Under the pieces are notes generated by a model. It made no database searches and had not been told where the DNA came from. It worked only from the letters and a program-made list of their open reading frames with translations. Below are positions 642-47,738 of a stretch of 64,000 bases of DNA, in pieces. The stretch lies in assembly GCA_027482195.1 (NCBI GenBank), contig JAIXWE010000053.1, positions 3,308 to 67,307 on the forward strand, written 5' to 3'. The first letter of the stretch is position 1. The number at the start of each line of letters is the position of its first letter. The position numbers were made by a program, and so were the translations under genes. Source of the stretch: Alphaproteobacteria bacterium (GTDB taxonomy: Bacteria > Pseudomonadota > Alphaproteobacteria > Micavibrionales > Micavibrionaceae).

Positions 642-643
642 TC

Positions 644-1087: not shown

Positions 1088-1106
1088 ACTTTCACGGGTG
1101 TAAAAA

Positions 1107-29407: not shown

Positions 29408-29775
29408 AAAAAATTATTCTGCTTGTTGAAGACGAAAAAGAATTATGTGACATCCTTCAAGATGAATTGGGTGCGCAAGGTTATATGGTTGTGACCGCAC
29501 GTAATGGCGAAGAGGGCCTTAAAAAACTTCAGGAAGTTGAGCCTCACCTCATTATATGTGATCGCGCTATGCCGATTATGTCGGGGTACCAACTTTTGGA
29601 ACGTATTCGCGGGTCTTATCCGCAATATAATGATCTTCCCTTCATCTTCTTAACGGCAATGTCCGATCCGCGTGATCGCCATTCCGTGTCCCATTTGGAA
29701 CCCACGGCCTATATTGAAAAACCTGTGGATTTTGATCGCCTCTCGCAAGCAATCCGTAAGGCGTTAGGGGAATAA
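29404..29775 (+). CDS. Single-domain response regulator (CheY-like receiver)
   Basis: LVEDE acidic pocket, phospho-acceptor region IICDRAMP, FLTAMSD and conserved Lys (IEKPVD). It is coupled to the kinase by a 4-nt overlap. Confidence 0.85.
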   Translation: MKKIILLVEDEKELCDILQDELGAQGYMVVTARNGEEGLKKLQEVEPHLIICDRAMPIMSGYQLLERIRGSYPQYNDLPFIFLTAMSDPRDRHSVSHLEPTAYIEKPVDFDRLSQAIRKALGE

Positions 29776-29780
29776 GCCTT

Positions 29781-30287
29781 ATGCGTTTTTTTGTTGTTTT
29801 GTTTGGTATCTTTTTTCTCACCGCCTGTGCAACGTCACCATCACCTCTTGTGCGTGCGGGTCACCAGGCTGATTTGATCACTGTTGATAAATCAGAAAAA
29901 AAGTTGGTCTTGTGGCAAGAAGGAAAAGTTTTAAAAAATTATAATATTCTTGCATTCGGTGCAAACCCCGTTGGTCACAAACAATATGAAGGAGATGAGC
30001 GCACACCCGAAGGTGATTATTTCATCAGCCGTAAAAACCCGAGCAAGAAATTTCAAAAATTTCTAAATATTTCCTACCCTAATGAAGATGACAAAAAACG
30101 TGCGAAAGCGCTTGGAAAATCTCCCGGCGGTTTTGTTGGTATTCATGGTGACAAGGGCGGGGTTGAAGGCTTTTTTGATCGCTTTGATCCAAGATGGACG
30201 GATGGGTGCATCACCGTGCGCAATCATGAGATTGAAGAAATTTACCAATTGGTCCCGGTTGGCACGCGGATTATCATTTCCCCTTAA
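29781..30287 (+). CDS. L,D-transpeptidase (YkuD) family lipoprotein
   Basis: Lipobox LTAC and a YkuD core (GIHG..., catalytic Cys context TDGCITV). Confidence 0.75.
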   Translation: MRFFVVLFGIFFLTACATSPSPLVRAGHQADLITVDKSEKKLVLWQEGKVLKNYNILAFGANPVGHKQYEGDERTPEGDYFISRKNPSKKFQKFLNISYPNEDDKKRAKALGKSPGGFVGIHGDKGGVEGFFDRFDPRWTDGCITVRNHEIEEIYQLVPVGTRIIISP

Positions 30288-30533: not shown

Positions 30534-31550
30534 ATGGGGTTGCCAACCGGAATTATAAAACAAGATTGGGTTCGGCATTCTGCTCCACAATCCGATAATG
30601 TTTCTCTCCCTCCTAAAAAAGATGGTCAATTTTATATTTCGTCGAATGGTTCGATTTTTCGTCACTATAAACATGAAGATGATCGTTTAATTCTTGCTCC
30701 CGCAAATGTGATTGTACATGAAAAAAATAAAAGCGCGAATGATCGCAATAAGCGCGAAATGTTAGAGCGACTTCGTTTGCTGATTGAGATGCGTGATTTG
30801 GTCATGAATATATTACATCTTCAAGAAAAAACACCTGACGATTCTGTTTTGTCTCCGTGGCAAGATTTACAAAAAACTTTGAAAAAAAAGTATGGTATTT
30901 TTTTAGAAACTTTCGGCCCAATTTATAAAACGGAAAGTGATCATTCTTATCCAAACTTAAGAAAATTTCGTAAAGATCCTGATGGGCACCGTGTTGCTTC
31001 CTTGATTGAAAGTTGCGATGACTTAAAAAATCATACTGGCGTTGGTGATATTTTTAACCCGCGCGTTCTCGCACATAACAGTGATGGTCTTGCGTTGACG
31101 AGTCATCATCAAAGCCTAATAGAGATTCCTCAATCGAGGAATTTCTTAAAACCATGTTTTGTGTTATCAGAAGAAAATTTTTTCCCCTTCATGCGTCAAT
31201 TTTTCAAGCTTCATCCTTTGGCAAATCTTTTCGTCATTGATCAAGATCAATGGATTGATGATGGCGCGAAATTGTCAGTTGATGAAAAAATGGAACGCTT
31301 TGTAAATAAGGTTAATAATAATTCATGGGATGGCATTTTAATCATGCCAGTTCATTTTAAAAAGTTGGTCAAGCACAAGTATTTTGATCTCATGAATGTG
31401 GATCATTATTTCATCGATGAATCTATTCAGTCACATACAATTGATGCGGCCGCCAAGATTGACGAGAGTCTTATATCTAAATTTACGGTGCCGGAGAGTA
31501 AGAAGCCCCCGCGCGCGGCATGTTATGATCCACCATCTCTCGCGGCGTAG
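30534..31550 (+). CDS. Hypothetical protein, possibly a collapsed remnant of a mobile-element methylase/SNF2-type helicase fusion gene
   Basis: 338-aa ORF with colinear short blocks (EMRDLVMNILHLQE, LKKKYGIF, FRKDPDGHRVASLIE, GDIFNPR, WDGILIMPVHF, VDHYFIDESIQ). These recall the linker and DExH-box region of those large proteins. No Walker A and no methylase motifs are present. The 3' end overlaps the convergent gene by 68 nt. Confidence 0.4.
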   Translation: MGLPTGIIKQDWVRHSAPQSDNVSLPPKKDGQFYISSNGSIFRHYKHEDDRLILAPANVIVHEKNKSANDRNKREMLERLRLLIEMRDLVMNILHLQEKTPDDSVLSPWQDLQKTLKKKYGIFLETFGPIYKTESDHSYPNLRKFRKDPDGHRVASLIESCDDLKNHTGVGDIFNPRVLAHNSDGLALTSHHQSLIEIPQSRNFLKPCFVLSEENFFPFMRQFFKLHPLANLFVIDQDQWIDDGAKLSVDEKMERFVNKVNNNSWDGILIMPVHFKKLVKHKYFDLMNVDHYFIDESIQSHTIDAAAKIDESLISKFTVPESKKPPRAACYDPPSLAA

Positions 31551-32655
31551 CAAAAAACGGGTTAGTATCCTGTGTAGTTAAAATCGATCGATCAAATTCA
31601 CATGCATGGCCTTGTTGATCCGCAATAAATTGTAAAAGCTGACGTCTAAAACGATAACTGGTTCCATAGGCGATTTTTTCACAAACCTCTTCACCTAAAA
31701 TCTCTCGTGCCGCATTATATAATAGCGCGGCATCAGCTTCGTTATCATTACCACCTGAGAATTTGGGAGCGCGCTGCGTGTTATTGGCCAGATTAAAATC
31801 GCGTATCGCAAACAACATTGGCAATGCACGTGGTAAAAATCCGGTGTCCTTGGGAACAAAGTCATGATAGGGCGGCTTTGCCGCCGCACCGGTGGATGTT
31901 TTTGGCATATCCGTTCCGCATTCCAAACTCATGATAGTTGAATCATAAACGCTTCGGAAATAATCTGCGCCGTAAACAACATTGCGACTTGCATAGGCGT
32001 GCACCGAAACTTTTTGAATAGATTTCCATGTAAACTTTGTTTGCAAACGTGCCTCTTGTTCCGCCATCAAAATGCGGCGTACTTTTTCATGATCGCCGTC
32101 CATCCATGCTTCATAATTTATAACAGAATCGAAATCGACAGGATTGGAGACATCTTTCAATTTTTCCCAAGCATGAGCAATTTGTCGTTTTGCATCATCT
32201 GGATTCAAAAACCCGTGCGGATAACCTAAAACAACAGCAATACCAACATTCGGATAATCTTTTAAAAATTCAATAAGGGGGGTGATTTTATCCGTGTAGC
32301 CATTATCACCAAAATCTCCCCACGTACAGACGGCGCGCATCGGGAAAGGATACGTGGCCTCTCGCGCCATGCGTGTCATCCATTCTTTTGGTTCGTTGCG
32401 CGTGTTGCGTAATGTTGTGTGGTCTGTGCGCGCCAAAACCCACTCCATTCTTTCTGCAGTAATTTCAGGGTGAGAAAAATATTGCGCGTAATGATCTGCA
32501 ATTTGGCAAGATCTAAAATAAATCTCCCGCGCATGCTCACGTTGTGATGATAGGGAATCTTTGATGGAAAGACTTGTAAATACAGGAGAGGGGGCAATGG
32601 GGGGAGTGCTAGGTACAGATGATTTGAGCAACATGACAATCCCCACAACAGTCAA
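31483..32655 (-). CDS. Deoxyribose-phosphate aldolase (DeoC/DERA) family protein, divergent, with an N-terminal extension
   Basis: It is colinear with E. coli-type DeoC: TDHTTL (MDLTTL), GIAVVLGYPHGFLNPDD (IATVTNFPHGNDD), VDFDSVINY (VDVVFPY), MPKTSTG (FIKTSTG, Schiff-base Lys at 31900-31902), APKFSGG (GFKPAGG) and YRF. The track start is TTG, and the first in-frame ATG is at 32634. Confidence 0.6.
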   Translation of the reverse strand: MTVVGIVMLLKSSVPSTPPIAPSPVFTSLSIKDSLSSQREHAREIYFRSCQIADHYAQYFSHPEITAERMEWVLARTDHTTLRNTRNEPKEWMTRMAREATYPFPMRAVCTWGDFGDNGYTDKITPLIEFLKDYPNVGIAVVLGYPHGFLNPDDAKRQIAHAWEKLKDVSNPVDFDSVINYEAWMDGDHEKVRRILMAEQEARLQTKFTWKSIQKVSVHAYASRNVVYGADYFRSVYDSTIMSLECGTDMPKTSTGAAAKPPYHDFVPKDTGFLPRALPMLFAIRDFNLANNTQRAPKFSGGNDNEADAALLYNAAREILGEEVCEKIAYGTSYRFRRQLLQFIADQQGHACEFDRSILTTQDTNPFFATPREMVDHNMPRAGASYSPAP

Positions 32656-32715
32656 AAATTTATCCTAGCTTTAGCTAACAAATTCGTGATGTCTTTACAA
32701 GAAAACATTGGTTAA

Positions 32716-32744
32716 CGTGAAACAGTTTAAAGCGTGAAACAGTT
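32716..32744 (+). promoter_or_regulatory. Two perfect copies of CGTGAAACAGTT spaced 17 bp start to start, in the divergent promoter region
   Basis: The copies at 32716-32727 and 32733-32744 are identical 12-mers. They lie between the DERA-like gene (minus strand) and the giant-protein operon (plus strand). Confidence 0.6.
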
Positions 32745-32876
32745 CGGCTTTTCTTGAGTTTATCGCATCTAAAAGTTCGAAAAAAATCATCCCAATTTAT
32801 TTTGTTAGGTGATGCTAATTTAAGTTGACGGCTAAAGTTTTTTTGATTTAAAGGAGGACTATCAGAATATTTTAAT

Positions 32877-35561
32877 GTGTCACGCATCACCAAGAAAGTT
32901 ATAGAGATGGAAACACCTCTTGTAACCACGGCAAGCAAGTGGATAACAACGCAACCGCGTTATCCGGGTGATTTATTCCACAATTTCGATTTATATTATC
33001 CCAAACCTGATTACACGGATGACTATTGGAAGGCGCAACATATTAATGCGGAAACCATGGCGTCTTTTGAATCGCGCTCAAAATGGGCCTATATCAACCA
33101 AGCCATGTTTTATGCTTCTGCTTCAAGTGGGCGTGCGGCCTATGATATGGCACGGCGCTATCCTGAAAAAATATTGATCGGAAGTCGCAAATTTACAACA
33201 CCAGATGACGAACAATTTATGACGATTCAGTGTTTGAAATCAGCCCTTGATTCAAACGCACTGATGGGTCCTTTTGTATTAGCCCAAAATTACCGTGATA
33301 ATATGATTGCAGCAGGAATTGCTGCGCAAAATCTCACTGATCCACGCACGGGGGAGCGCAATGTTTATATTGTTGGGCCGCCGCATCGTGAAGCTTTTAT
33401 TCGCAGTTTGAAGCAATACCCGACATTATTGCGGGGTGCTGGTTACGAAGATGCAACATTCGAAATTCACTTCTGGGGGCCTTTTTGCACATTTGATGTG
33501 ACGCACGGCATTTATTCGGGGGATCATGCATGGTCGCGTAATGCTGCGATGGAAAAAGCTTCTGCGCTCGCTACTCAATATGGTGTTCCATTAATTTCAA
33601 TGTATCGCAGTGGTCGCGGATGTGCCGTTGTCGATATTTACAATCAATCTATCTCTCCGCTTGATCAAGCATGGGAAGATGCACGCCACATTGTTGATGT
33701 GGTTGGCCAGACTGTCCGGTTTAATGGCTCCGATTATTTCTTCCGTACTGAAGCAGCCGTCATGTTGTTGCTCACGCGCTTTTTATACGATGATTATGTG
33801 CGTAACGGAACGGGGGATCTTGTTCCAAGCTTAATGGATCCGGCGGTAAAGGCACATTATGCTTCGCCGGGTGAAATTGAAAAAATGGATATTTTGAAAC
33901 GCCATATGCTTCCCTATATGGCGAATTTTTGTAATTGGCCGACATTGCATCGCGCATTAAATAATGATCCTGCGTTAAAAGCTTACTGGGAAGAGAATGT
34001 TATTCCTCATTACGGGCAGATGGATAACAAAGCGGAAACGGAAGCAAAGATTCTAAGCTATCTTCCGCGCGGCGGTTGTGCTGATCAAGATTTGATGAAA
34101 AAAGTTTCTGAGTTGCGCGATCCGCGTAGCAAAAGTGTGTTTATGTCTTCATCAAATGAGAACGCACAATTTGCAAAACCGCCCATGTCACAAGGATTGC
34201 ATGAAGAAGCGTTTTCATCTGAATACGATCCGCTTATTTTTAATGACCGCAACTTTGCACGATTAAATGCAACATCAAATCCTAACCAAGATCCATCACC
34301 AACACATTACAGTTTTGAACAATCGGCAGCCATTATGGTTTTGGCGGGCTTTCGTAATAAAGGTTTGGTGCCTTTTGACGCGCCGCGGACATTATTATTT
34401 CTCGATGGTGCAAGCCAAGGTGAAATGCCTAAAAAATTCCGTGAAGATAAAGGCGTGTCTCATCCATCAGAAATGGGTGCAATATTTGATGTTTTATCAC
34501 GCGGTGGTGAAAACTTTGCCGAAAGTGTAGGTGAAGAAAATGCAGCAAATTTAAAAGATTTAACCCGGCGGATGATGTTTCATCCTTCTTTTGAGTTATG
34601 GCGCAAAAAACATGGTGTGGGTAATATTATTCCTGTATCTGATTTTTCGGCTGCTTTTGCCCAATTTGAAGGGCGGCGCGAAGCAACGAATACGGAAGTG
34701 CACGAAGCCATTGATGCGCGCGGGTCGATGAAAATAACTTCGGCCACGAGTGAGGCGACAGTGCGCCGTTATATTGCCGTCGAAGCACAGGGAATAGTTA
34801 TTCCGAGTGGCGATATTGATGAACGCAGCTATCGTTACATCACAGATGGTGTCTTGGCAACGATCGGTAAAACACCGCGCCCAAATTCTGGTGGTAAATA
34901 TCAATTCGAGTTTTTCTTGAAATCATCCGGTGATGATCAGATTAAAAAACTTGATTTGGCTGATTTGATTATCCTTGTTGGGCTTCAAGTTAAGTCTGAT
35001 TTAGAAAAAAAGACGCCGGCAAAACTAAAAGATCGTTATGTATCAATGGCGCGGCTACTCAATATCTATGAATATCTTATTGATCCTGCGCAACGGAATC
35101 AGGTTTACAAACGTGACTCATTATCTGGTGCAGATTCTCAGAAAAGCATAATTGATTGGAAGCAAGTTGATCCTGATTTTAGTGAATTTATAACCTATAC
35201 CCCCACTTTTGATATTTCTATTTTTGATAAAGATGAAGAATATCAAAAATTTTCAAATAATACATTGGACTTGCAAACATATTTATTTGATCCCGTGCAA
35301 AAATCAAAACTGGTTCAAATGATATGGGCATGGATGGTGGCTGCACCCATTAAGGTGCGAGAAATTGGTAAGGATATGCCAACACGTGGAAATTTATTAG
35401 CGCGGGCGATTAAGGATTTTGACGATCGTGATTTGATTGATCTGCCTAGTGAGTACCGCGACGCCAAGAAATGGTGGGAAGGCATGAACGCGCGGCAGCG
35501 TAAAGAGTTTTTTGAGCAAGGAACTATTCATTTACAAGGGCCCGCAGTTGATGTGCGTTAA
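32877..35561 (+). CDS. Hypothetical large protein (894 aa), first gene of the giant-protein operon
   Basis: Long uninterrupted ORF in which I recognise no catalytic or nucleotide-binding motif. The start is ambiguous: GTG at 32877, or ATG at 32907 preceded by a 9-codon mini-ORF. Confidence 0.6.
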   Translation: MSRITKKVIEMETPLVTTASKWITTQPRYPGDLFHNFDLYYPKPDYTDDYWKAQHINAETMASFESRSKWAYINQAMFYASASSGRAAYDMARRYPEKILIGSRKFTTPDDEQFMTIQCLKSALDSNALMGPFVLAQNYRDNMIAAGIAAQNLTDPRTGERNVYIVGPPHREAFIRSLKQYPTLLRGAGYEDATFEIHFWGPFCTFDVTHGIYSGDHAWSRNAAMEKASALATQYGVPLISMYRSGRGCAVVDIYNQSISPLDQAWEDARHIVDVVGQTVRFNGSDYFFRTEAAVMLLLTRFLYDDYVRNGTGDLVPSLMDPAVKAHYASPGEIEKMDILKRHMLPYMANFCNWPTLHRALNNDPALKAYWEENVIPHYGQMDNKAETEAKILSYLPRGGCADQDLMKKVSELRDPRSKSVFMSSSNENAQFAKPPMSQGLHEEAFSSEYDPLIFNDRNFARLNATSNPNQDPSPTHYSFEQSAAIMVLAGFRNKGLVPFDAPRTLLFLDGASQGEMPKKFREDKGVSHPSEMGAIFDVLSRGGENFAESVGEENAANLKDLTRRMMFHPSFELWRKKHGVGNIIPVSDFSAAFAQFEGRREATNTEVHEAIDARGSMKITSATSEATVRRYIAVEAQGIVIPSGDIDERSYRYITDGVLATIGKTPRPNSGGKYQFEFFLKSSGDDQIKKLDLADLIILVGLQVKSDLEKKTPAKLKDRYVSMARLLNIYEYLIDPAQRNQVYKRDSLSGADSQKSIIDWKQVDPDFSEFITYTPTFDISIFDKDEEYQKFSNNTLDLQTYLFDPVQKSKLVQMIWAWMVAAPIKVREIGKDMPTRGNLLARAIKDFDDRDLIDLPSEYRDAKKWWEGMNARQRKEFFEQGTIHLQGPAVDVR

Positions 35562-35585
35562 TGATGATGATAAGTACGGAGTTAC

Positions 35586-38500
35586 GTGATGGTTAAGTTT
35601 TCTGATGCACTGACAGAAAACTACTCACTTGATATGTGGTTGCGGCGTTTGGGGCTTTGGCGTCATAAGCCAATTGGTTTAATGACGATTGATGAACGAA
35701 AAGCATATCTTCATTCAAATGCCTTCTCAAAACCTCTTGTTTTAACGGGATCCTCTTACGACCCTGAAGGCTATCAGCTCATCAGCATGATGTCGCTTAC
35801 GCACTATGATCATGTAAGTGGTATTCTTGATGATAAAATTATTTATTGGCGACACACATTGGATGATGATGTTGATGAAGCAGGTAAAATTCCATTTCAG
35901 GATTATTTTGTTTTAGGGATACGCGGTGTCCGTGATGATCACCTAACGGGTGAGGGTGTTCCGGTTATTGTGCCGGATCAAATCTGGTGGAACGGGAATT
36001 TGGTCTTTAATGGTCCAGCAAATGGGGGGCGTCATGATCCGGAGCGCCCTGAACAACAACGTCAAATTAATCGCTATCTTGAGATGAGTCAGCAAGTTAA
36101 AGAGCATTTAAATAGAGGTTTGCCGCTTGAAAAAATTGGCCATGTGTTCTCACAAGATGTGTTGAGTGATCATTTCTCTGCGCGCGCTCTTGGGGGCGCG
36201 CCTTTCTTGCGTGGTTTAAGCTCATCAGGATGGGATAACGTGGAGCGGCTTCTTGGGGCAAATTTTGTTGACTTGTTTCAAAAAGAAGATCAGAGAATTT
36301 CATTTCGTCTTCCATCCTTACCTGAAATCTCTTCACTTGATCGCTTAAAAGCTCTTCATGGTTTTTATATCAACAGTGTGGAGCCAATACGCTGTTTAAG
36401 TGAGCAATGGGATAAATATGCCTCTGATATGCGCACGGGAATGGGTTATGTCACAGAAACGAATTACTTTTTTGATGAACAAAAGCAACGTCATATTTTT
36501 TCAGTGCGTATTGCCTCAGAAAATCCACCTAAGGATATGCCAAAATTTGAGCCATATGAATTAATACGCCTTGAATATACTCAGGGTGAGGATGTTTTTA
36601 CGCTGGAAGATTCATTCTTTATGGGTGTCAAAGATAAGAAATATCAAAAAAATAGTGATTTTTTAAGTCTTATTGGGGCTTTGCAAGATACAAATCAAGC
36701 CCTATCTGAGCGCATTTTTCCTGATTATCAATCTATTTTAATGCGCAATAAACTTCATAATCGTATTAGTGAATTTCGCATGCCGCCAAAATTATCAGAC
36801 GGGGGCGAGGCGTTGTGGATTCCATTATGGGGAACCAATATGCGCAAAACGATTGAAGAGTTTGGGGATGGTATTGGTGGTGGAAATTTATTTATGCATC
36901 GTGGGCGTGATGATGATAACCACCTTGATGAAATTGCCGTGCTACATGGCTTGCCGTATCAGCCGGGAAGCCCAGACTCGAATTATAAAGGTGCACAGCC
37001 GAGTTTAGTGCCTTATCTTGATGCCTTGCGCCGTGGTGCGATCATCATTGATCACATTCACTTTGATCACTCAACAATTGAGTTTTATGCGACACAAAAG
37101 GATCAAAGTGGTAACGGTTGGTTCAAAGGGCAAAAAATTATTTGTAAAGGTATAGATGCCTATATCATGAAAAATCGTCTTTTGCGCCTGGGTGTTAAGC
37201 AAGATCAGTGGCCAGAATTTATTGAATTTGATCGTGATGATGCGTTTGCGCGTTACCCCAATCTCTTTAAAGATAGAAACGGAAATTTTGCTTATCGCAT
37301 TCAAGATGAAAAAGGCAACACGCGCGGATGGAATCAGATTTGTAAAGATGGAACAAGCCATTCAGCGTTGACGGACTCTTACCTTATTACAATGTGTTAT
37401 AATAATAATTTACTTGATACCTATTATATCGATAGTGATGCGAACGGGCTTAACGACAACGGATGGAAATTTGCAGAAGACGGCCAATTTGCGCTTGAAG
37501 GCATTGATGGAATTACACGCGAAGATTTATTGAAAGCTGTTAAGTCAGAAGATAAATTATATATCTCACTAGAAGAGCCGACAGGAATTACGCGTACTGG
37601 GCGTTGTTCTACACCTGAGCAATTCAAAGATACATTCCGTGCATTAGAAAAAGCATTACCCGAAGGCTTTGCGCATGGCGTCATTCCTTTTTCAACCAAT
37701 CATTTGGAATATCAAGCTATTCGTGAAGTATGGGCCGAAAAAGATACGTTGCGGCATACGACAGCGGTTGGCGCCAACGCCCAATTGCGGGATACGGCAT
37801 TAAATATATATGGGGTCAATCCTAAACTTGATTTGCGCACAGTGACTATTGCGCATGATCATATTCCGCAATTAGTTTATGAGCTTTTATATGATGGCAT
37901 GATTGATTTCATGATAAAGGCTGAGAAAAAAGCGTTACGACAGTCAAAAAGAGAATACGAAAGCAGAACATTAGATGAGATTTTAAATGATGATGTGGTG
38001 TATCAAAAAGTAAAAGCAATTTTTGATACTCATAAAGATAATTTTGATCATGGCGTATCGCAACCGATTGAGTTTTATAATGGATTTTTGAATAACCAAG
38101 ACGGTGATTTAACAAAATTGATGCAATCATGGTTGCGCAAATATACCAAAGTATTTTGGGAAGGTGCAGATAAATTATCAACCGCATATAATGGAAATAC
38201 GTGCAATTTTATGCTGTCTAAACTAATAAGCAAAGGGATGGTCACATTTGACTCCCGTTGCGGTCACAATGATTACAATATGTATCAAGCCATTATGGTG
38301 AAGCAAGACCACGCTTCTGTTCACGGTGTGCGTACCGCAAAACGCACCAAAAGATTTAGAAATGACTATGGACAGCTTGGCTTTATTTCAACTGACCCAT
38401 TGGGGACTTCGGACAGTCGCTTCGGGTCAATGTCGCGTTTTGCAAATGGTGACTCACTCTTTGACTATGATGAATTTGTGCGTAACACAGGTTACAAGAT

Positions 38501-39335
38501 TGATCCTGAGAAACTTATTCTCACAGTGACACAAACCGCGAGCATGGGATCTGATGCATGGAAATCTCAAGATCAGCTTATGCAGAAAATTTCACATGAC
38601 CGTGGTGTGACAGTTTTTTGTGCGATTGATGACGGCTTTAAAATCTATAATCCGCGTGAGCATCGCGCGCGCTATGAAGCGATGTGTCGTGAAGAAGGAT
38701 GGAGCTTCACGGGCGACGGTCGCATGATGTATATTCATGCTGCGCATTCGCACATTCAAGGTCACAGGCGTGAGCAAGATATGCGGGATAAAATGACTGA
38801 CCCCCGCTATAAACCAAAATTGGTGGAAGTCATTCATTGCCCAAGTGTTGAGAGTTTGAATATTCTTAAAAATGTCGTGCGTGATGCGGGTCATCGCATG
38901 ACGATCAAAGAGCCGGAAAATAATATCGCGCGCGCATGCGAGTGGGATGAGAAAACACAATCTTATAACATGATTGATAAAGACTATTTAAGTGAACGGA
39001 TGATGTTAATCAATTGGGCCGCAAAATATGGTCAGATGTATAATTGGGTTGTAACAATGACCGAGGCAATTGTGATGCCAAAACGTGGTGGTGCACGGGC
39101 TGATCCACTTACAATGCGGTCACATTTATGTAGCGAGTTCCAGCAACAAACCGCATTGCGAAACACAGCAAGCTGGATAAGACCAAAATTTGGTAACAGT
39201 AGCCGTGGGCGAGCTTTAGGGCCTGCGCCCGCCGATATTCGTGAGGAGGGTGGAGCTCCGCCTGCTCCTATGATGACCGATATGTTACGCCGCGCCTTAA
39301 TATCAAGCTCCGCACGGAGATTGCAGAATGTTTGA
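35586..39335 (+). CDS. Giant protein (1249 aa) with an RNase J-like metallo-beta-lactamase/beta-CASP core
   Basis: GGAG lies 8 nt before the ATG at 35589 (GTG at 35586). The HxHxDH motif IIIDHIHFDHS is at 37053-37070. RNase J-like blocks occur in order: WIPLWGTN..IGGGNLF, SLVPYLDAL, GTSHSALTDSYLI, YYIDSDANG, HIQGHRREQDM. About 400 N-terminal residues have no motif I recognise. Confidence 0.6.
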   Translation: MMVKFSDALTENYSLDMWLRRLGLWRHKPIGLMTIDERKAYLHSNAFSKPLVLTGSSYDPEGYQLISMMSLTHYDHVSGILDDKIIYWRHTLDDDVDEAGKIPFQDYFVLGIRGVRDDHLTGEGVPVIVPDQIWWNGNLVFNGPANGGRHDPERPEQQRQINRYLEMSQQVKEHLNRGLPLEKIGHVFSQDVLSDHFSARALGGAPFLRGLSSSGWDNVERLLGANFVDLFQKEDQRISFRLPSLPEISSLDRLKALHGFYINSVEPIRCLSEQWDKYASDMRTGMGYVTETNYFFDEQKQRHIFSVRIASENPPKDMPKFEPYELIRLEYTQGEDVFTLEDSFFMGVKDKKYQKNSDFLSLIGALQDTNQALSERIFPDYQSILMRNKLHNRISEFRMPPKLSDGGEALWIPLWGTNMRKTIEEFGDGIGGGNLFMHRGRDDDNHLDEIAVLHGLPYQPGSPDSNYKGAQPSLVPYLDALRRGAIIIDHIHFDHSTIEFYATQKDQSGNGWFKGQKIICKGIDAYIMKNRLLRLGVKQDQWPEFIEFDRDDAFARYPNLFKDRNGNFAYRIQDEKGNTRGWNQICKDGTSHSALTDSYLITMCYNNNLLDTYYIDSDANGLNDNGWKFAEDGQFALEGIDGITREDLLKAVKSEDKLYISLEEPTGITRTGRCSTPEQFKDTFRALEKALPEGFAHGVIPFSTNHLEYQAIREVWAEKDTLRHTTAVGANAQLRDTALNIYGVNPKLDLRTVTIAHDHIPQLVYELLYDGMIDFMIKAEKKALRQSKREYESRTLDEILNDDVVYQKVKAIFDTHKDNFDHGVSQPIEFYNGFLNNQDGDLTKLMQSWLRKYTKVFWEGADKLSTAYNGNTCNFMLSKLISKGMVTFDSRCGHNDYNMYQAIMVKQDHASVHGVRTAKRTKRFRNDYGQLGFISTDPLGTSDSRFGSMSRFANGDSLFDYDEFVRNTGYKIDPEKLILTVTQTASMGSDAWKSQDQLMQKISHDRGVTVFCAIDDGFKIYNPREHRARYEAMCREEGWSFTGDGRMMYIHAAHSHIQGHRREQDMRDKMTDPRYKPKLVEVIHCPSVESLNILKNVVRDAGHRMTIKEPENNIARACEWDEKTQSYNMIDKDYLSERMMLINWAAKYGQMYNWVVTMTEAIVMPKRGGARADPLTMRSHLCSEFQQQTALRNTASWIRPKFGNSSRGRALGPAPADIREEGGAPPAPMMTDMLRRALISSSARRLQNV

Positions 39336-42300
39336 CAAGAACAATCAACGCATCGCACGTAAACGATTTTTATGGCCACAAGTCACGCGCGGTGAGTTAA
39401 TGAACTTGACGATTGATTTTGAAACAAGCGGTTTGGATCGCCAAAATGTCCCTTATGCAACAAAATCATACTCTTTTACTACAGAATATGGGGATGCTCT
39501 GACTGATTTTGCGGGAAACTATTTAAACTCGGCTCAAATTTTTCCGCGTCGTCCTGATTGGTTGGTTGCACAAACACCGGCATTGATCTTACAGCGTACA
39601 CCAACGGGGCCTGCGGATTTAGATGACGAATCTCGGATTCCTTATTCTCAAGCGTGGGCGGCAATTTCATGGCGTATTGAACAAGCTATGTTCGCCTATG
39701 ACCAATTTGGCCATCCGACGAACATTATTTCAATCGCTGACTATGATAAAAGTTTTAAGCACGGCCAAAAAGATGCTATTGAGACTGTCATTGATATTCC
39801 TCTTTTGGATGATAACGGGGAAATCGTTTATGACTTAAGATACCATCCTGAACGCCGCAAAATTTCATATCGAATTGATAGAGATCCGCAAAGCCCTTAT
39901 TACCGTGTCCCGCATAATATTTATTACAAAGACAAAGATGATAAATCGTTATGGAAATGGGTTGATCCAAGCTTATACGTTGATTTTTATAATGCTCGTT
40001 TTGATTTGCCGCATTTGCGGATGCAACTCTATCGCACCGGATCGGATCCCCAGGATACAACATTTTTATATGCACGCGGTACACCAAGCAACAAACAACG
40101 CAAGCGCGGCCATATTGTTGATGTCCGCCACGTGGCTTACGCTACGGCTCTTTACGGACCGCAAGGTGAGCAAGGCTTAAATCTTGGTCGCATTATTGAT
40201 GAACGTGGCCGTATAAGAAATTCCGAGGCCTTATCAGCCTATCTATCCTCGAATTCCAATTTTGAGAATCCAATGCGTTTGATAAAGCAAGGTATCTTTA
40301 TGCCAGATGGGTCTTTGCATGATCCTAATATGGATCATGGCGCAGCCTACGATGCCCTTGGTACGGTTGCATTACGTAACCATTGTTGGGATATTGCGCC
40401 GTGGGTGTGCGCCGAAGTGGTGCGTCAATCCGATGATAATGACCGCCGTCATTTTTTAATGCGCCAAGATCCGGTCCGTACGATCTTTCCGCTTTATACA
40501 TTGCCGCGCCGTCAAGAAGGCTTAAGTCACAGCGATCAACTTTATTGGTATTTGGGCAATGATAATGCGCTTGGAGATTTCAAGGATGACATTTTTCTGC
40601 GCGTGGACGGCAAATTAAGGCACGAGACATACAAAGAAAAATTATTGAAGGATTTATCTGTTGAAGAGTGGGTCGAATATCTTTCCTTAAAGGTCACGTC
40701 ATCAGATCCTGATCGCGCCGTAAGAATGGAATCGCATCGTTTGGCACCACCTGCTTTTGCTTTTGATGATGTTGTCAACTACACATCCCAGGGCGGTAAA
40801 TATAAATCGCGCTTTAAAGATTTATCGCAAGACATCAAATATATCACTGAGAACGAACAAATGCGGGAACGTATTTTCTCAGCTATCGCATTAAAAAATG
40901 AAGTGCGTCGCAAAAATGCACATGTGCCTCATGTCAAACTTTTAGAGGATGAATTGCCATCCCAATACTCTATCGAAGTAAGTTTTCAAGACGATGCACG
41001 ACGTGAGGAGCAGCGGCAGCAGTTTATAAAGTCGGGTTATAAAGGGCCAGAAATTCAGCCAGGCATTTTAGATACAATCAAAAATGCCATGGATAATGTC
41101 TATAAATTTCAACGTCAAATTGACTCGGCGTCTAGACGTTTATGCTTGAAGGCTCATCCAATTGACTTTTTTAAAGATTATGAACTCGATGATTTTGCTC
41201 ACATGCAGGATCCAGATATTGCCGCTGTTCTTCAAAATTATACTGATTTATGCGAACGTGTTTATAGCATTTATAAAAAGAAGGAGTCTTCTTATAAAGA
41301 CTTTCTTGATGAGATTGTAAATCCTGTGACTGGTGGATCTTTCTTTAAAAAGGGACGATTTAAAGCACAAACGGTTGGACAAGCATTTTATTTTCGCAAA
41401 GAGTTGATGCGCCGTGCCCTTAATGATTATGATATCTTACTATCCTATAAAGGTTCGGACACGCATAAAAAATCATATATTGAAGGAGTGGTTGATAAAA
41501 AAGTTTATTCCTTATCGCATCGCGGTAAGCAACTTTTTCTCTTTGCCGACCCAGATAATGGTGTTCAGGGATCACAGCCATTTTTAGTCGATGAATATGG
41601 CCGGAGATTGGAACTATCCTACATTAAGTCTATTTCTCCGCGTGATGCGATTAATCTGCTTGTAAATGAAAATAAATGGGAAATCCGTTTTTATCGTCTA
41701 AGATCAGATCCAACAATTTTAAGGCTGGCTCAGCGGGCGCTTGATCTAGACATGGGTAATATTATCCCGCCCGCTATTTTGCACATGTATCAGGCAGATA
41801 AAAGAAACCGCCATCTGATCCTTCCGAACGAGACACCAACAACGTCACGTATTCCGACATTACTCACAGACGAAATTGACATTACGCGGCTTGAAATTGC
41901 TGCATCCAGTCAATCGCCTTTGATTTTGGAGCGCGCAGAAGATTCTGCATTATCGGTTGCCGCGCGCCTGATCAAGCAAGATGAGTCATGGCGTATTTTA
42001 TCAAACTCACGTGCTTATAATACAGAAATGACATCTTCTGCCTTGAGTTGGCAGCCATGTTTATCTGCTGCTATGTTTGACCCTGTAAGTAATTTGCCTT
42101 ACGAGTTTATCGAGCATCTTATTCCGCGTGATAGCTCAAAAGATTTTGAGGATGATCCTAATATTATCATCATTGATGTTCCGGTATGGCATGCGCATTA
42201 CCCTATCGAGCAATATGACCCGCGTCTTCCTTTTCGCGGCCTGGTTATAGATGATATTCCAAAATATCAACGCGAACTTATCCGCGAGAATCGCCGCCAT

Positions 42301-43107
42301 GTTGTTATTCGTGTCAAAGAAACGGGGCAAATGTTTGCATGTGGGCGAACATCGCTTCATACCGTTCAATCAAATGATAAATCATTTTCAAGTATTCTTG
42401 AGAAGGCCAGTAATGATTACCTGCAATCCGGCCACAAACTTTCGGATAAAAAAAATCTTTTGTTTTTGGGAATTGAAAAACTATACCCGATAGCAAATAC
42501 CCGCCCGATTGATCAATCTTACCAGTCCTTATCACTTGCCAGCCCTCAATTTTATGGCCTTGTATCGCCGTGTTTTGCAAATTTACGGGACACATTTTTA
42601 ACAGCAGCTATTGTCCCATATGATTACGCATCACAACGTTTTATGAAGGGGGATCCTATCCACTTGCATGAAATGGAAGGACAAATTTTTGCGTCATCTA
42701 ATGGGCAGCGTAATCCCAACACAGGGCATATGTATGAATCTATCCTCGATGATATCAAGGGGGTTGACGAGAATGGTAATAAGCAAGGCATTACAATCGA
42801 GCAAATAATGCGCGACATTCGAAGTGGTGACTTGTCATCGGAATTTGTGAGAGCGGCCGGATTTTTAGGCCCTGATCATTTGGAGCAACATCTGCACGAT
42901 TGGACGGCGGCGCGTTTTAAATCAAATCCAGATCAGGAAAAATTTTTATTATGTTCCTTTGCACCGGTGAATGAGGTTTACCGTGAAACAGGAAGGGAGA
43001 AAGATAATAAATGGGTTTATTTTGATGGTCTTTCTGTACCAAGGGCGGCCATTTCGTGGGATGGGCAAATGCCACCACCTCAAAGTTATCGGCGGGTTTT
43101 TGTATAA
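39328..43107 (+). CDS. Giant protein (1259 aa) with an N-terminal exonuclease I (SbcB)-like DEDDh 3'-5' exonuclease domain
   Basis: Exo I motif IDFETSGLD (39412-39438), Exo II FYNARFDLPHL (39985-40017) and Exo III HGAAYDALGTVAL (40336-40374). The start overlaps the upstream stop by 8 nt (ATGTTTGA). About 900 C-terminal residues have no motif I recognise. Confidence 0.6.
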   Translation: MFDKNNQRIARKRFLWPQVTRGELMNLTIDFETSGLDRQNVPYATKSYSFTTEYGDALTDFAGNYLNSAQIFPRRPDWLVAQTPALILQRTPTGPADLDDESRIPYSQAWAAISWRIEQAMFAYDQFGHPTNIISIADYDKSFKHGQKDAIETVIDIPLLDDNGEIVYDLRYHPERRKISYRIDRDPQSPYYRVPHNIYYKDKDDKSLWKWVDPSLYVDFYNARFDLPHLRMQLYRTGSDPQDTTFLYARGTPSNKQRKRGHIVDVRHVAYATALYGPQGEQGLNLGRIIDERGRIRNSEALSAYLSSNSNFENPMRLIKQGIFMPDGSLHDPNMDHGAAYDALGTVALRNHCWDIAPWVCAEVVRQSDDNDRRHFLMRQDPVRTIFPLYTLPRRQEGLSHSDQLYWYLGNDNALGDFKDDIFLRVDGKLRHETYKEKLLKDLSVEEWVEYLSLKVTSSDPDRAVRMESHRLAPPAFAFDDVVNYTSQGGKYKSRFKDLSQDIKYITENEQMRERIFSAIALKNEVRRKNAHVPHVKLLEDELPSQYSIEVSFQDDARREEQRQQFIKSGYKGPEIQPGILDTIKNAMDNVYKFQRQIDSASRRLCLKAHPIDFFKDYELDDFAHMQDPDIAAVLQNYTDLCERVYSIYKKKESSYKDFLDEIVNPVTGGSFFKKGRFKAQTVGQAFYFRKELMRRALNDYDILLSYKGSDTHKKSYIEGVVDKKVYSLSHRGKQLFLFADPDNGVQGSQPFLVDEYGRRLELSYIKSISPRDAINLLVNENKWEIRFYRLRSDPTILRLAQRALDLDMGNIIPPAILHMYQADKRNRHLILPNETPTTSRIPTLLTDEIDITRLEIAASSQSPLILERAEDSALSVAARLIKQDESWRILSNSRAYNTEMTSSALSWQPCLSAAMFDPVSNLPYEFIEHLIPRDSSKDFEDDPNIIIIDVPVWHAHYPIEQYDPRLPFRGLVIDDIPKYQRELIRENRRHVVIRVKETGQMFACGRTSLHTVQSNDKSFSSILEKASNDYLQSGHKLSDKKNLLFLGIEKLYPIANTRPIDQSYQSLSLASPQFYGLVSPCFANLRDTFLTAAIVPYDYASQRFMKGDPIHLHEMEGQIFASSNGQRNPNTGHMYESILDDIKGVDENGNKQGITIEQIMRDIRSGDLSSEFVRAAGFLGPDHLEQHLHDWTAARFKSNPDQEKFLLCSFAPVNEVYRETGREKDNKWVYFDGLSVPRAAISWDGQMPPPQSYRRVFV

Positions 43108-43402: not shown

Positions 43403-44455
43403 ATGGCCTTGTATCGGCAAGAAACAGGAAAATTCAAAATTGACGAGCGCGAGATCGATGCGACGTTACGTGGTGACGTTTTGCCATTACACACCGCGCC
43501 ATCATTGTCTCAAGATGAAGACGAAGCAATAGAAAATGAGGCAGGTTTTGGTGAGGGTCATACCCGTACGCGTGCCGCGTTATCAGAGTTTACAAATGCT
43601 GATCCGTTAAATGCCGCCGGTGCAGCGGAGAAATTGCGCCGCGATATTAACAGCCCACTTAACATCGGTGGTGGTGGCGGTGCGCTTTACACCGAAGATA
43701 AAAATCCATGGGGTCAAAACAAAGACGAGAAAAAAGACGACGTTGCCCAAAACGCCATGGGGGATATGGTTGAGCAAGCGCAAGAAAGTTTAAAGCGCGA
43801 TCGTGAGGTCATGCAACGCCAACGTGAAGAGCAATGGGCGAACATGATGAACGATGAATACGGCATCAACCTGACACCGGGGCAGTGGAAGCGCGTTGAA
43901 GATATCATGTCGGACGATTCCAAGCGCAAAAAACACTTTGATGATTTGCAAAAGAAAAATGGGTGGACAGACAAACAACGCGACGAAGCCGAAAAGGCAG
44001 CGATGGAGATTATTCGCCTCAAACAACTTTATGCCCAAGGGAAGATTTCCGAAGATGAACTTAAAAAACGCATGGGCGATCTCAAAGCCGAAAACCCAAC
44101 AGCTTTTAAAGATGCAGGAAAATCTGTTGAAGCAATCAGCGAATTTGATAGTAAGGATGCCAGTACAAAAATTACTGATGCAAGCGCACAATCGCGCGTG
44201 AAACAAACCGATGATGTTCAGGTTGCACGTGTTGAACAGAAAGCAGAGGTGAAAGCGTTACCATCCGGAACCCCGCAGTCCCAAAGTGATGTATCATTTG
44301 GGCGGGCACAATTTCCAACCGCTCCAAACGCGACGAATGATTTTAGCGCGGTGAATAATCCACAACCTGCAAAAGTTGAGACAGCACCAGCGGCACAACC
44401 AAACCCGGTACAGATAGCGAGCATTGAGCGCAAATTTGACGCCGTCGCGTTGTAA
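43403..44455 (+). CDS. Hypothetical highly charged protein (350 aa)
   Basis: GGGGAG lies 8 nt upstream of the ATG. The centre is rich in Lys/Glu/Asp/Gln helical sequence and the tail is Pro/Ala/Gln-rich. I recognise no motif. Confidence 0.5.
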   Translation: MALYRQETGKFKIDEREIDATLRGDVLPLHTAPSLSQDEDEAIENEAGFGEGHTRTRAALSEFTNADPLNAAGAAEKLRRDINSPLNIGGGGGALYTEDKNPWGQNKDEKKDDVAQNAMGDMVEQAQESLKRDREVMQRQREEQWANMMNDEYGINLTPGQWKRVEDIMSDDSKRKKHFDDLQKKNGWTDKQRDEAEKAAMEIIRLKQLYAQGKISEDELKKRMGDLKAENPTAFKDAGKSVEAISEFDSKDASTKITDASAQSRVKQTDDVQVARVEQKAEVKALPSGTPQSQSDVSFGRAQFPTAPNATNDFSAVNNPQPAKVETAPAAQPNPVQIASIERKFDAVAL

Positions 44456-44472
44456 AATCAAAGATTATAAAA

Positions 44473-45291
44473 TCAGGGATTAAGAGCCGCCAAGGTGGTG
44501 GGGGCTGATGATGTGCTCGCCGCCGCAACTTGTGGTCCTTTATAAAAAACGCTTGCAAGTTCAGTCGGGCGCGTTGCGGATGTTGTCGCCATAGTGCGCG
44601 TTACACCATCGCCATCAACAAAATGAATCCCCCCCTGACGGGTTGGCAAAGCATTCGGGCTATAACCAAAAATAAGGCGTGGGCCATAACGCTCACCGCC
44701 CTTTTCGGGGACTAATGTATCAGCCACAATCGCAACGCGATACCCGGCGGCATAACGTTTGGGAAGGCTTTCATCATTAACAGCCGCGCTTCCGAACGTA
44801 TCACGTGCCAATGCCGCGCGTGAAACGGCCGGGTCAATGCCGGTTAAGGCGGCTTGAGGAATGCGGTCAGATCCAGGGCCCGAAGTTGGGAAAACTTTGA
44901 TATTCGCCATAGTGATACCAACACAGGCCTTTGTCGGGGCGGATATAAAATCATACCCCACACCATTTTTTATGCCGCGTGACGCGGGCAATGTGCCATC
45001 GGCGTTGGGTTGAATTTTAAGGGGTGAATTAAAAGCAACGACATAGCCGCGTGAGCCGTTTGCGTTTGAATAAAAAATTTGACCGTCTTCGCCAATATTT
45101 TGTTGGTTGCCCATATAAATAGGAGCCATTTTTTCAGCACCTAGCTCGGTGCGCAATTGCGCGATTTCCGCATCACCATTGTAGCATTTTTCTTCCACTG
45201 CCGCATTTACCGCGGTTGCACCTGCGCAGATGGCAAACGCGAAGGCGGCTGCTGTTTTTGCGGTTTTCAAAGCTAAAGATGTGCGTGTCAT
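44473..45291 (-). CDS. Hypothetical secreted protein
   Basis: From the internal Met there is a clear signal peptide (MTRTSLALKTAKTAAAFAFAICAGATAVNA). I recognise no motif. The ORF extends to 45360. Confidence 0.5.
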   Translation of the reverse strand: MTRTSLALKTAKTAAAFAFAICAGATAVNAAVEEKCYNGDAEIAQLRTELGAEKMAPIYMGNQQNIGEDGQIFYSNANGSRGYVVAFNSPLKIQPNADGTLPASRGIKNGVGYDFISAPTKACVGITMANIKVFPTSGPGSDRIPQAALTGIDPAVSRAALARDTFGSAAVNDESLPKRYAAGYRVAIVADTLVPEKGGERYGPRLIFGYSPNALPTRQGGIHFVDGDGVTRTMATTSATRPTELASVFYKGPQVAAASTSSAPTTLAALNP

Positions 45292-45358
45292 GGCAATCAC
45301 CAATTTGTTTTTGTTTCTTGAATGCTTAAGACTATATATCAAAACACCCCGTCTTGGC

Positions 45359-45374
45359 AAATTTCACGTAAAAT
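45359..45374 (-). repeat. Right copy of the 16-bp perfect inverted repeat (AAATTTCACGTAAAAT on the plus strand)
   Basis: It is the reverse complement of 30327-30342. It lies 68-83 nt upstream of the ATG at 45291 and 59 nt from the tRNA-Ser 3' end. Confidence 0.9.
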
Positions 45375-45432: not shown

Positions 45433-45522
<90 letters not shown>

Positions 45523-45695: not shown

Positions 45696-46757
45696 ATGAA
45701 ACATTGGTTACGGTCTGTTTTTGTCTTGGCTGCGTTGGCTTTTTCCTCTCCTGCGGCGGCACAAAACGCCAACACATTTGATATTTGGTTGCAGAATTTT
45801 AAAAAGGAAGCCCGTGCCCAGGGGATATCTGACACCACCTTAAATCAGGCTTTTCAAAATGTGCGCCCGATTGAGCGTGTGATTGAGCTGGATCGCAAAC
45901 AGCCGGAACGCAAAATCGGTTTTAATGAGTATCAGCAAAAAACCATGACAGCCCAACGTGTGGCCGAAGGCCGCCGCTTGCTGGCGGAGCATTGGACAAC
46001 GTTAAAGCGCATTGAAAAACAATACGGGGTTCAGGCGCAGTATATTGTCGCATTATGGGGCATGGAAACCAGTTACGGGCGCAATACGGGTGGGTTTGAC
46101 ATTATCGCGTCCTTATCCACCTTGGCGTGGGAAGGGCGGCGCGGGCCTTATTTCCGTGGGGAGCTTTTGAAAGCGTTGCGCATTCTGCAAGAAGGCCACG
46201 TGTCTCGCGCTGATTTCAAAGGATCATGGGCGGGTGCGATGGGACAAGTGCAATTCATGCCGTCCAGTTGGAAATCTTACGCGGTTGATGATGATGGCGA
46301 TGGGCACCGCAATATTTGGACATCAAAACGCGATGCGTTTGCTTCCGCCGCCAATTACTTATCACAACGCGGCTGGCAATATGGTCAAAGCTGGGGCCAA
46401 CAGGTGAGAGTGCCGCAAGGCTTTTCAAAAAATTTGATGGATCGGAACGTCCGAAAAACTGCGGCTGAATGGGCGCGTTTGGGGGTTCGAAAATTTGATG
46501 GGTCGGCGTTGAATGTCAAAGATACGACGCTTTTTTATTTGGTGGAACCACGCGGCGGTGACGGCCAGGTGTTTATGGGGGGGCCAAATTTACAAACCAT
46601 CATGTCGTGGAACAACTCAAACTTTTTTGCGATCACTGTGGGGGAATTGGCGGATCAAATTGCGGCAAAGGACGGTGCAAAGCCCGCACAAAAACCTGTG
46701 CCTTCCGTATTGCCCGCGATCACCATTCAACCACCCACTAATCACTATAACAATTAA
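45696..46757 (+). CDS. Lytic murein transglycosylase (MltB-like)
   Basis: It has a signal peptide, the catalytic region ALWGMETSYG and QFMPSSW. Confidence 0.85.
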   Translation: MKHWLRSVFVLAALAFSSPAAAQNANTFDIWLQNFKKEARAQGISDTTLNQAFQNVRPIERVIELDRKQPERKIGFNEYQQKTMTAQRVAEGRRLLAEHWTTLKRIEKQYGVQAQYIVALWGMETSYGRNTGGFDIIASLSTLAWEGRRGPYFRGELLKALRILQEGHVSRADFKGSWAGAMGQVQFMPSSWKSYAVDDDGDGHRNIWTSKRDAFASAANYLSQRGWQYGQSWGQQVRVPQGFSKNLMDRNVRKTAAEWARLGVRKFDGSALNVKDTTLFYLVEPRGGDGQVFMGGPNLQTIMSWNNSNFFAITVGELADQIAAKDGAKPAQKPVPSVLPAITIQPPTNHYNN

Positions 46758-46772
46758 GATAATGAGAGTTTT

Positions 46773-47711: not shown

Positions 47712-47738
47712 TAAAATTTAAGGACGGAGTTTTTTGAT

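Follow-up and report, generated by a model that had tools for sequence, protein, structure and literature searches.

RecBCD and AddAB couple a motor to nuclease activities for both strand polarities and carry a large subunit without motifs, while helicase-centered defense systems such as DISARM (DrmD), BREX (BrxH) and Druantia place a large superfamily 2 (SF2) helicase beside big uncharacterized partners. In Haloferax volcanii, a complex of RecJ3/RecJ4 with archaeal RNase J (aRNase J) acts on RNA and single-stranded DNA (ssDNA) and is important when cells recover from DNA damage (PMC10470531). Here we describe a locus from an alphaproteobacterium of the family Micavibrionaceae, found in a 64,000-nucleotide stretch of DNA (the window; GenBank assembly GCA_027482195.1, contig JAIXWE010000053.1, positions 3,308 to 67,307 of the forward strand). 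Three very large genes, A, B and C, form an operon which encodes an orphan protein (A), a predicted RNase J-type metallo-beta-lactamase (MBL)/beta-CASP nuclease (B) and a predicted exonuclease I (ExoI)-type DEDDh nuclease (C), beside a gene for an aldolase resembling deoxyribose-phosphate aldolase (DERA, DeoC) and the remnant of an SF2 helicase gene. Coordinates are collected in Table 1.

As in the Haloferax complex, an RNase J-type nuclease would here be combined with exonuclease activity of opposite polarity. The partner in Haloferax is the DHH-family RecJ rather than a DEDDh ExoI, and the archaeal complex has subunits of ordinary size and no helicase, aldolase or A-like subunit. The likeness to AddAB and RecBCD is one of functional analogy only, in that a motor may serve nucleases of two polarities and A is proposed to be RecC-like; those enzymes have PD-(D/E)xK and superfamily 1 helicase folds, whereas the module has beta-CASP, DEDDh and SF2 (ResIII, SNF2, Helicase_C) folds, and no sequence or structural match to them was seen in the PDB profile and Foldseek results. 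With respect to the helicase-centered defense systems, the module has no methyltransferase, PLD or DUF1998 partner and does not lie in a defense island. A, B, C, the aldolase and the neighboring genes gave no match to PADLOC-DB v2 at E <= 1, and no description was found in the literature on the Pfam domain name of the helicase or on the domain combination. The module is therefore classed within the general helicase-nuclease kind, as an undescribed form. A preliminary description of the locus, whose author knew of no described system that couples these two nuclease families as giant fused proteins, is supported on this point. With A and the aldolase link understood, the module stands a fair chance of proving categorically new.

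The three co-directional open reading frames (ORFs) and both of their junctions were recovered as originally reported. The stop codon of A (35559-35561) is followed, in a 24-nt gap, by GGAG at 35578-35581, then by the GTG at 35586 and the ATG at 35589 of B; the 8-nt overlap of B and C is ATGTTTGA at 39328-39335. Homologs and the public gene call place the start of A at M11 (32907), and the public gene call places that of B at ATG 35589, where translation probably begins. The length of the ORFs is far beyond chance, and full-length homologs exist at 31-47% identity. A, B and C are co-transcribed.

A word-indexed search of 5.8 billion proteins returned 23 homologs of A (32-47% identity to the window protein), 8 of B (31-45%) and 17 of C (34-46%), exclusively from metagenomes or from metagenome-assembled genomes named "Alphaproteobacteria bacterium"; all three families are rare and without annotation. 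When 1.84 billion proteins were searched exhaustively by HMMER with the A profile, 75 representatives at 50% clustering were retrieved, among them a distant clade with proteins of 720-970 amino acids (aa). Scans of GTDB representative genomes and of JGI metagenomes with B patterns, which pick up close relatives only, gave a single locus from each. At E <= 1, Pfam, NCBIfam and PADLOC contained no match to A, B or C, nor did PHROGs at E <= 0.05, and profiles built from the family alignments found no related chain among PDB sequences. Paralogy among the three proteins was ruled out by hhalign (probabilities < 3%).

Related loci from other genomes, given L-numbers, make up with the window a main clade of ten independent lineages (the window, L001/L004, L002, L003/L009, L005, L006/L007, L008, L010, L011 and L012), and L013 and L014 belong to distant, deep-clade relatives. 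The order A-B-C is kept in all ten main-clade lineages as far as the contigs extend, with B and C overlapping or nearly abutting in most loci. L013 and L014 have the order A'-(small gene)-B'-C', in which B' and C' align to B and C with hhalign E values of 4e-51 and 9e-48 at 21-24% identity, and the contig of a third distant relative carries A'-B'. This same order at 21-24% identity indicates that the triad is an ancient, strictly linked unit, and the three genes co-occur in an identical order in all the related loci that we recovered. In L013 and L014, the small genes inserted between A and B were considered as split-off pieces of A or B, which was ruled out by comparison; the clade-specific small genes of L014 (12904-13848 and 21617-22209, forward strand) encode one 314-aa and two 94-aa proteins, which have no relationship to A or B.

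Modeling of B by AlphaFold2 (AF2) with 8 diverse sequences gave a mean predicted local distance difference test score (pLDDT) of 66 overall and of mostly 70-90 across residues ~405-1130. The model suggests an N-terminal ~400 aa of mostly beta structure (poorly modeled), a core at ~405-1130 interrupted inside the beta-CASP domain by a large helical insert at ~760-930 (~170 aa), and a conserved disordered C-terminal tail. Each of the 11 PDB matches at E <= 0.001 obtained with Foldseek was a beta-CASP nuclease (probability 1.0). Ten were RNase J, aCPSF1 or FttA (E 6e-7 to 2e-5), with the archaeal RNase J structures 5hab, 5ws2 and 5haa at the top (E 6e-7 to 1e-6; template modeling score normalized to the target, TM(target), 0.62-0.65), and the eleventh was the type VII CRISPR nuclease Cas14 (E 2.7e-4). 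Residues H490, H492, D494, H495, H592, D618, S703, T704, H1056, G1059, H1060 and H1084 are invariant in an alignment of 16 B homologs which includes both deep clades. The metal ligands of MBL motifs 2-4 (H490, H492, D494 and H495; H592; D618) and beta-CASP motifs B and C (H1056-x-x-G1059-H1060; H1084) are thus present, the latter two being what we take to be the colinear counterparts of the HxSGH and PxHGE motifs of RNase J. The candidate for motif A, E714, is D or R in some homologs, and the adjacent S703-T704, which are invariant, recall the Ser-Asn segment of RNase J.

The window B protein did not match Pfam at E <= 1 and so lies below the curated family threshold. Among its relatives, L013 B' scores 30.5 bits with Pfam RNase_J_b_CASP, above the cut-off of 27, which L014 B'' narrowly misses, and 7 of 12 B homologs match Lactamase_B_2 weakly, below threshold. 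Taken together, the Foldseek matches, the invariant motifs and the Pfam matches of distant relatives support B as a very divergent, predicted RNase J-type MBL/beta-CASP nuclease, in line with the colinear core first proposed. B shares with RNase J and aRNase J the fold and the colinear HxHxDH, H(592)S, D618, S-T-N, HxxGH and H1084; it differs in sequence (~9% identity), in length (~1250 aa versus 450-560 aa) and in having ~400 extra N-terminal residues, the ~170-aa helical insert and the conserved disordered tail. Unlike RNase J, B is invariably encoded between A and C. Within the tail (38970-39332, residues ~1130-1249), which is predicted to be disordered, a conserved motif reads SARQR..GPS.ADIQ..GG.P.GP and may serve as a peptide to which a partner docks.

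The AF2 model of C, built with 17 sequences, was of higher quality (pLDDT 81, predicted TM score 0.76). Its only significant PDB matches in Foldseek were to E. coli exonuclease I, 1fxx (E 1.6e-8) and 4hcb_B (E 1.6e-7), with TM(target) of 0.57-0.61 (0.61 for 1fxx over 694 columns); since ~700 columns were aligned to a target of 459 residues, the match takes in every ExoI domain. Matches of the model to further DEDDh enzymes (Orn, REXO2 and TREX1) were at E >= 0.1 only. The DEDDh residues D30, E32, D226, H337 and D342 are invariant in 21 homologs of C and lie in the motifs DFE, NxxFD (residues 222-226) and HxxxxD (337-342). In sequence searches, C and 12 homologs had no match in Pfam, including RNase_T and the ExoI C-terminal domain, and the PDB profile search returned no ExoI or other DEDDh chain, its best matches being unrelated (E 0.28 or worse). 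Alignment of the C family to E. coli SbcB by hhalign (E 0.008, probability 5%) is weak and not significant alone, but the ExoII, ExoIII and C-terminal helical segments follow one another in the same order in both. C is thus supported, on its modeled structure and invariant residues, as a very divergent SbcB-type exonuclease.

The preliminary description had placed such a DEDDh exonuclease at the start of C, as a core amid unrecognized sequence; the core stands, and the surroundings require revision, as the ExoI-like part spans the whole architecture of ~700 aa. The exonuclease, SH3-like and helical domains and the DEDDh residues of ExoI (SbcB; 1fxx, 4hcb) all have counterparts in C, at 12% identity, with insertions which expand the 459 aa of ExoI to ~700. 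A further ~550 C-terminal residues (~711-1259; 41458-43104), not found in ExoI, are confidently modeled as a helical and then an alpha/beta region and carry their own invariant residues (D950, P952, E998, G1000, E1050 and P1054), several of them acidic. No structure in the PDB or BFVD lists matched this half, and when the C model was compared with viral structures by Foldseek, the matches were weak DEDDh ones only, with none for the C-terminal half; a second catalytic or binding site is possible there. Whereas ExoI acts alone, C is translationally coupled to B.

Protein A is an orphan: at the level of sequence, no relative with a known fold could be detected. Its most conserved part, residues ~60-335, contains the motif GDxxxSRNxxxE, and S220, E226 and G236 are the sole invariants across 37 deep relatives. 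Neither a 23-sequence nor a 37-sequence profile found a relative in the PDB, Pfam scans of the 37 individual relatives gave no consistent family, and A and its relatives had no match in NCBIfam, PHROG or PADLOC. The absence of any motif, noted earlier, thus holds with respect to library and PDB profile searches.

The module is larger than was first noted, as it includes the aldolase and an SF2 helicase, the latter missed by the preliminary description. In tblastn, the L001 helicase matched the window at 46% identity (E 6e-34) and 35% identity (E 7e-12), and a reciprocal search from the remnant matched the helicases of 8 loci. The remnant is an in-frame fusion of helicase residues ~39-208 to ~516-599, from which RecA2 and the C-terminal two-thirds are gone; it has no Pfam match, its GC content at third codon positions (GC3; 0.327) is the lowest of the window, and at its 3' end it shares 68 nt with the 3' end of the aldolase gene. 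With A, B, C and the aldolase intact beside this 338-aa remnant, the window genome has a helicase-decayed version of the module. In other loci the full-length helicase is 1300-1480 aa. It carries ResIII, SNF2-related and Helicase_C domains in our local copy of Pfam and WH_1, DUF8437 and Helicase_dom in precomputed Pfam matches, and against PADLOC it gave generic SF2 C-terminal matches, its C-terminal half weakly matching DrmD and BrxH (E 1e-9). The helicase gene adjoins the aldolase gene in seven lineages and lies downstream of C in L002; counting the decayed window copy, it is linked in 9 of the 10 main-clade lineages, being absent from L003/L009. That linkage is retained despite change of position (L002) and decay (window) supports its membership of the module.

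The aldolase has orthologs in L001 and L002 at 51-52% identity, and its profile matched only deoxyribose-phosphate aldolases in the PDB (E 6e-6). The Schiff-base lysine K252 (KTSTG) and D176 align to the DERA motifs (KTSTG and D-x-V), and K298 (KFSGG) would be the DERA lysine partner by motif resemblance; all three are invariant in 3 orthologs. DERA enzymes are of ~220-260 aa, whereas this protein has N- and C-terminal extensions, and its gene stands beside nucleases rather than in a deoCABD operon as for DeoC. The window protein and 7 main-clade orthologs had no match in Pfam at E <= 0.05. The aldolase gene lies beside A-B-C in 8 of the 10 main-clade lineages and is absent from L012 and L003/L009; L001 and L008 are examples of loci with all five genes. 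In the deep clade, a DeoC gene different from the main-clade aldolase lies directly upstream of the L014 triad, and its product passes Pfam DeoC (E 8e-8, 32.6 bits versus 23.8). The preliminary description had suggested nucleic-acid scavenging which feeds the adjacent aldolase; the link to a DeoC-family gene holds in these 8 lineages and one deep clade, and the metabolic part of that suggestion enters below as a proposed step.

The reading we favor, tentatively and with slightly less than even confidence, is that A, B and C are the subunits of one large cytoplasmic nuclease assembly, which would act most likely on DNA and in both polarities and would be tied to the disposal of deoxyribose-phosphate. 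The active sites of B and C appear intact in sequence and model, with opposite expected polarity. B would cut or chew 5'->3' through its two-metal RNase J-type beta-CASP site and C would chew single strands 3'->5' through its ExoI-type DEDDh site, while the helicase, where it has not decayed, would unwind or translocate and so feed both nucleases. A may be a scaffold, regulator or substrate selector, and the aldolase would clear the deoxyribose-5-phosphate ultimately released by degradation. A DNA rather than an RNA substrate is suggested: the substrate of DERA derives from deoxyribonucleotides only, and the best structural match of C, over all domains, is an ssDNA-specific enzyme. E. coli ExoI is specific for ssDNA and also has deoxyribophosphodiesterase (dRPase) activity (PMC2943613). 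The module would behave as a stable part of the chromosome rather than as a mobile island, with a function such as the bulk turnover of DNA, its salvage or the processing of its ends.

The genomic setting bears on this last point. Housekeeping genes flank the module in all main-clade loci, and no integrase, transposase or known defense gene was found in the ten main-clade neighborhoods. L006, L011 and L012 share flanking synteny, with module proteins 50-64% identical and neighboring decarboxylases 64-74% identical, which indicates vertical inheritance under purifying selection. No relatives turned up in megablast and tblastn searches against phages and plasmids or in scans of viral contigs with each of the three families. 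The suggested origin in a mobile element is thus not borne out, and this stable chromosomal context led us to rank a housekeeping-like DNA-processing role above mobile defense; DNA turnover or salvage, repair and immunity are the candidate physiological roles.

Several points weigh against the assembly as proposed. The helicase and the aldolase are each missing from some lineages, so neither is obligatory. RNase J enzymes are chiefly RNases, and B could accordingly act on RNA. No fold or activity could be assigned to A from library and PDB profile searches. Conversion of a deoxynucleoside monophosphate (dNMP) to deoxyribose-5-phosphate needs an extra N-glycosidic cleavage, for which no enzyme was identified, though A could conceivably perform this step. 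The GC3 of the module, ~0.36 (32001-43107), lies ~1.5 SD below that of the other 34 window ORFs (0.437 +/- 0.049), and together with a tRNA-Ser gene 2.3 kb downstream of C this would fit an old horizontal acquisition; the GC content of host loci among relatives is 41-59%. The distant A'-B'-C' of L013, finally, lies 7 kb downstream of a Gabija-like pair of an OLD-type TOPRIM ATPase and a UvrD helicase (L013 1-2380).

The last two of these points would suit an undescribed anti-phage or anti-plasmid immunity system, in which the large SF2 helicase senses or translocates on foreign DNA, the two nucleases destroy it and A is the sensor. A helicase with nucleases and a large orphan subunit resembles DISARM- and Druantia-type architecture, and the weak DrmD and BrxH matches of the helicase, the rare and patchy distribution and the piecemeal loss of components (the window helicase remnant; the L012 aldolase) are of the same tendency. 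We nevertheless regard immunity as unlikely, though deserving of serious consideration: A, B, C and the aldolase match no PADLOC model, the ten main-clade neighborhoods hold housekeeping flanks and no integrase, transposase or other defense gene, no relatives were found in the phage, plasmid and viral-contig searches, and inheritance is vertical and syntenic even where housekeeping enzymes are only 64-74% identical. We also know of no precedent for a DERA-type aldolase in a defense system. The stable chromosomal context would suit a machine for DNA repair or end processing, at abasic or sugar-damaged sites, crosslinks or double-strand ends, which would work like the RNase J/RecJ complex or AddAB and in which the Schiff-base lysine of the aldolase would act on deoxyribose-phosphate. 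The beta-CASP family includes the repair nucleases SNM1 and Artemis, and a uracil-DNA glycosylase (UDG) gene lies near the L002 module. ExoI, besides its dRPase activity, has roles in several repair pathways (PMC2943613), and the Haloferax RNase J complex with its opposite-polarity exonucleases works in DNA-damage recovery (PMC10470531). We consider repair improbable, however, as no alphaproteobacterial SOS box (GTTC-N7-GTTC-like) was seen on reading the upstream regions of the loci, repair yields only trace deoxyribose-phosphate, and a module absent from the vast majority of bacteria does not answer a general repair need.

Two further explanations depart from DNA metabolism or from the cytoplasm. 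In a degradosome-like assembly for RNA decay or transcription clearing, an RNase J-type 5'-3' "torpedo" would work together with a helicase and a 3'-5' exonuclease. RNases are numerous among DEDDh enzymes, the top matches of B are RNases (RNase J, aCPSF1/FttA, Cas14), C has weak Orn and REXO2 matches, and a DEAD-box helicase gene lies upstream of the L014 module; torpedo roles of beta-CASP enzymes have been reviewed (PMC8501993). The fit of C to the ssDNA-specific multi-domain ExoI is far better, however (E 1e-8 versus 0.1 or worse for RNases), the linked aldolase belongs to deoxyribose metabolism and the accompanying helicase is SNF2/ResIII-like rather than DEAD-box, which together make an RNA-decay role very improbable. 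That the proteins are secreted effector nucleases of a host-associated bacterium, as the preliminary description also considered, is hardly credible. Although they are very large and without annotated homologs, and some relatives' genomes have a DotI/IcmL gene and SET-domain proteins, secretion genes are unlinked to the module, the translations show no N-terminal signal peptide and no other direct evidence of secretion was found. A complex inside the cell is what the strict order of the three genes, their translational coupling and their linkage to genes for a helicase and a metabolic enzyme suggest.

The region between the divergent aldolase and A genes contains a 12-nt direct repeat, CGTGAAACAGTT, at 32716-32727 and 32733-32744 (17 nt apart), which is a candidate operator. 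Just downstream of the repeat lies TTTTCTTG (-35-like), common to the equivalent intergenic regions of 6 loci, and AGGAGG stands ahead of A at 32853-32858. A motif TTTTCCAAAA(A), located <= ~100 nt from the A start codon in L001, L003/L009 and L005, has no exact copy in the window. Promoter and terminator scans gave sites no more numerous than in shuffled sequence.

Around the module, the window carries cell-wall, signaling and other housekeeping genes (Table 1). An Rfam scan of the window found a tRNA only, and the two lineage-specific ORFs between C and tRNA-Ser have no relatives in the other loci. Elsewhere, divergent genes of the DUF4886, amidohydrolase-like and dihydroorotate-dehydrogenase families lie directly upstream of A' in L013. 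The DEAD-box helicase gene of L014 is two genes upstream of its module (7007-8254, reverse strand). In one clade, DotI/IcmL (type IVB secretion) and SET-domain genes occur near the module (L011 207-746, L006 1773-2165 and L012 2831-3301), a hint of a host-associated lifestyle.

Table 1. Features of the module and its surroundings in the window (positions in nucleotides of the window unless residues are stated)
Feature	Position	Strand	Description	Basis
Gene A	32877-35561	+	894 aa from GTG; 884 aa from 32907	ORF translation
Orphan protein A	32907-35561	+	884 aa; 23 close homologs	
Gene B	35586-39335	+	1249 aa from GTG; 1248 aa from ATG 35589	ORF translation
Gene B core	residues ~405-1130	+	RNase J-like MBL/beta-CASP (predicted)	AF2 model, Foldseek, invariant residues
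MBL motif 2, HIHFDH (HxHxDH)	37053-37070	+	B residues 490-495; invariant in 16 homologs including both deep clades	
Gene C	39328-43107	+	1259 aa from ATG	ORF translation
Gene C ExoI-like module	residues ~20-710	+	predicted three-domain module; DEDDh D30 E32 D226 H337 D342	AF2, Foldseek
C motif DFE	39415-39423	+	residues 30-32	
DERA (DeoC)-like class I aldolase	31483-32655	-	390 aa, divergently transcribed	
SF2 helicase remnant	30534-31550	+	338 aa	tblastn and reciprocal search
Putative divergent promoter/operator region	32656-32906	.		read from sequence
SMC	12140-15610	-	window neighbor	
Aminopeptidase N	23369-25990	-	window neighbor	
PAS histidine kinase, response regulator, YkuD transpeptidase	27845-30287	+	upstream of module	
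Lineage-specific ORF	43403-44455		low-complexity, acidic/lysine-rich; between C and tRNA-Ser	
Lineage-specific ORF	44473-45360		hydrophobic N-terminus; between C and tRNA-Ser	
tRNA-Ser (anticodon TGA)	45433-45522	-	2.3 kb downstream of C	
MltB-RlpA-DacC cell-wall cluster	45696-48887	+	downstream of module	

B and C extend the RNase J and ExoI structural families by new, enlarged and extremely divergent members, which fail the curated sequence thresholds and are placed there by motif and by modeled fold, with clear catalytic residues. Together with A, they add three new protein families for annotation, and none of the three core proteins is recognized by a curated family library. More than 5000 residues are under purifying selection as one module in poorly known, uncultivated Alphaproteobacteria. 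RNase J and exonuclease I are normally small, stand-alone enzymes, and here they are locked with an orphan, a helicase and an aldolase-like enzyme. It is conceivable, though we hold it rather doubtful, that the five genes encode an unknown kind of machine, a helicase-driven bipolar nuclease in which A has a new fold or activity (substrate recognition or base-sugar cleavage) and DNA destruction is coupled to deoxyribose breakdown, serving a pathway from DNA to central metabolism or a new class of immunity. If the proteins do act as one machine, they would represent a new way of destroying nucleic acids processively and, to our knowledge, the first case of nucleases genetically coupled to sugar disposal.

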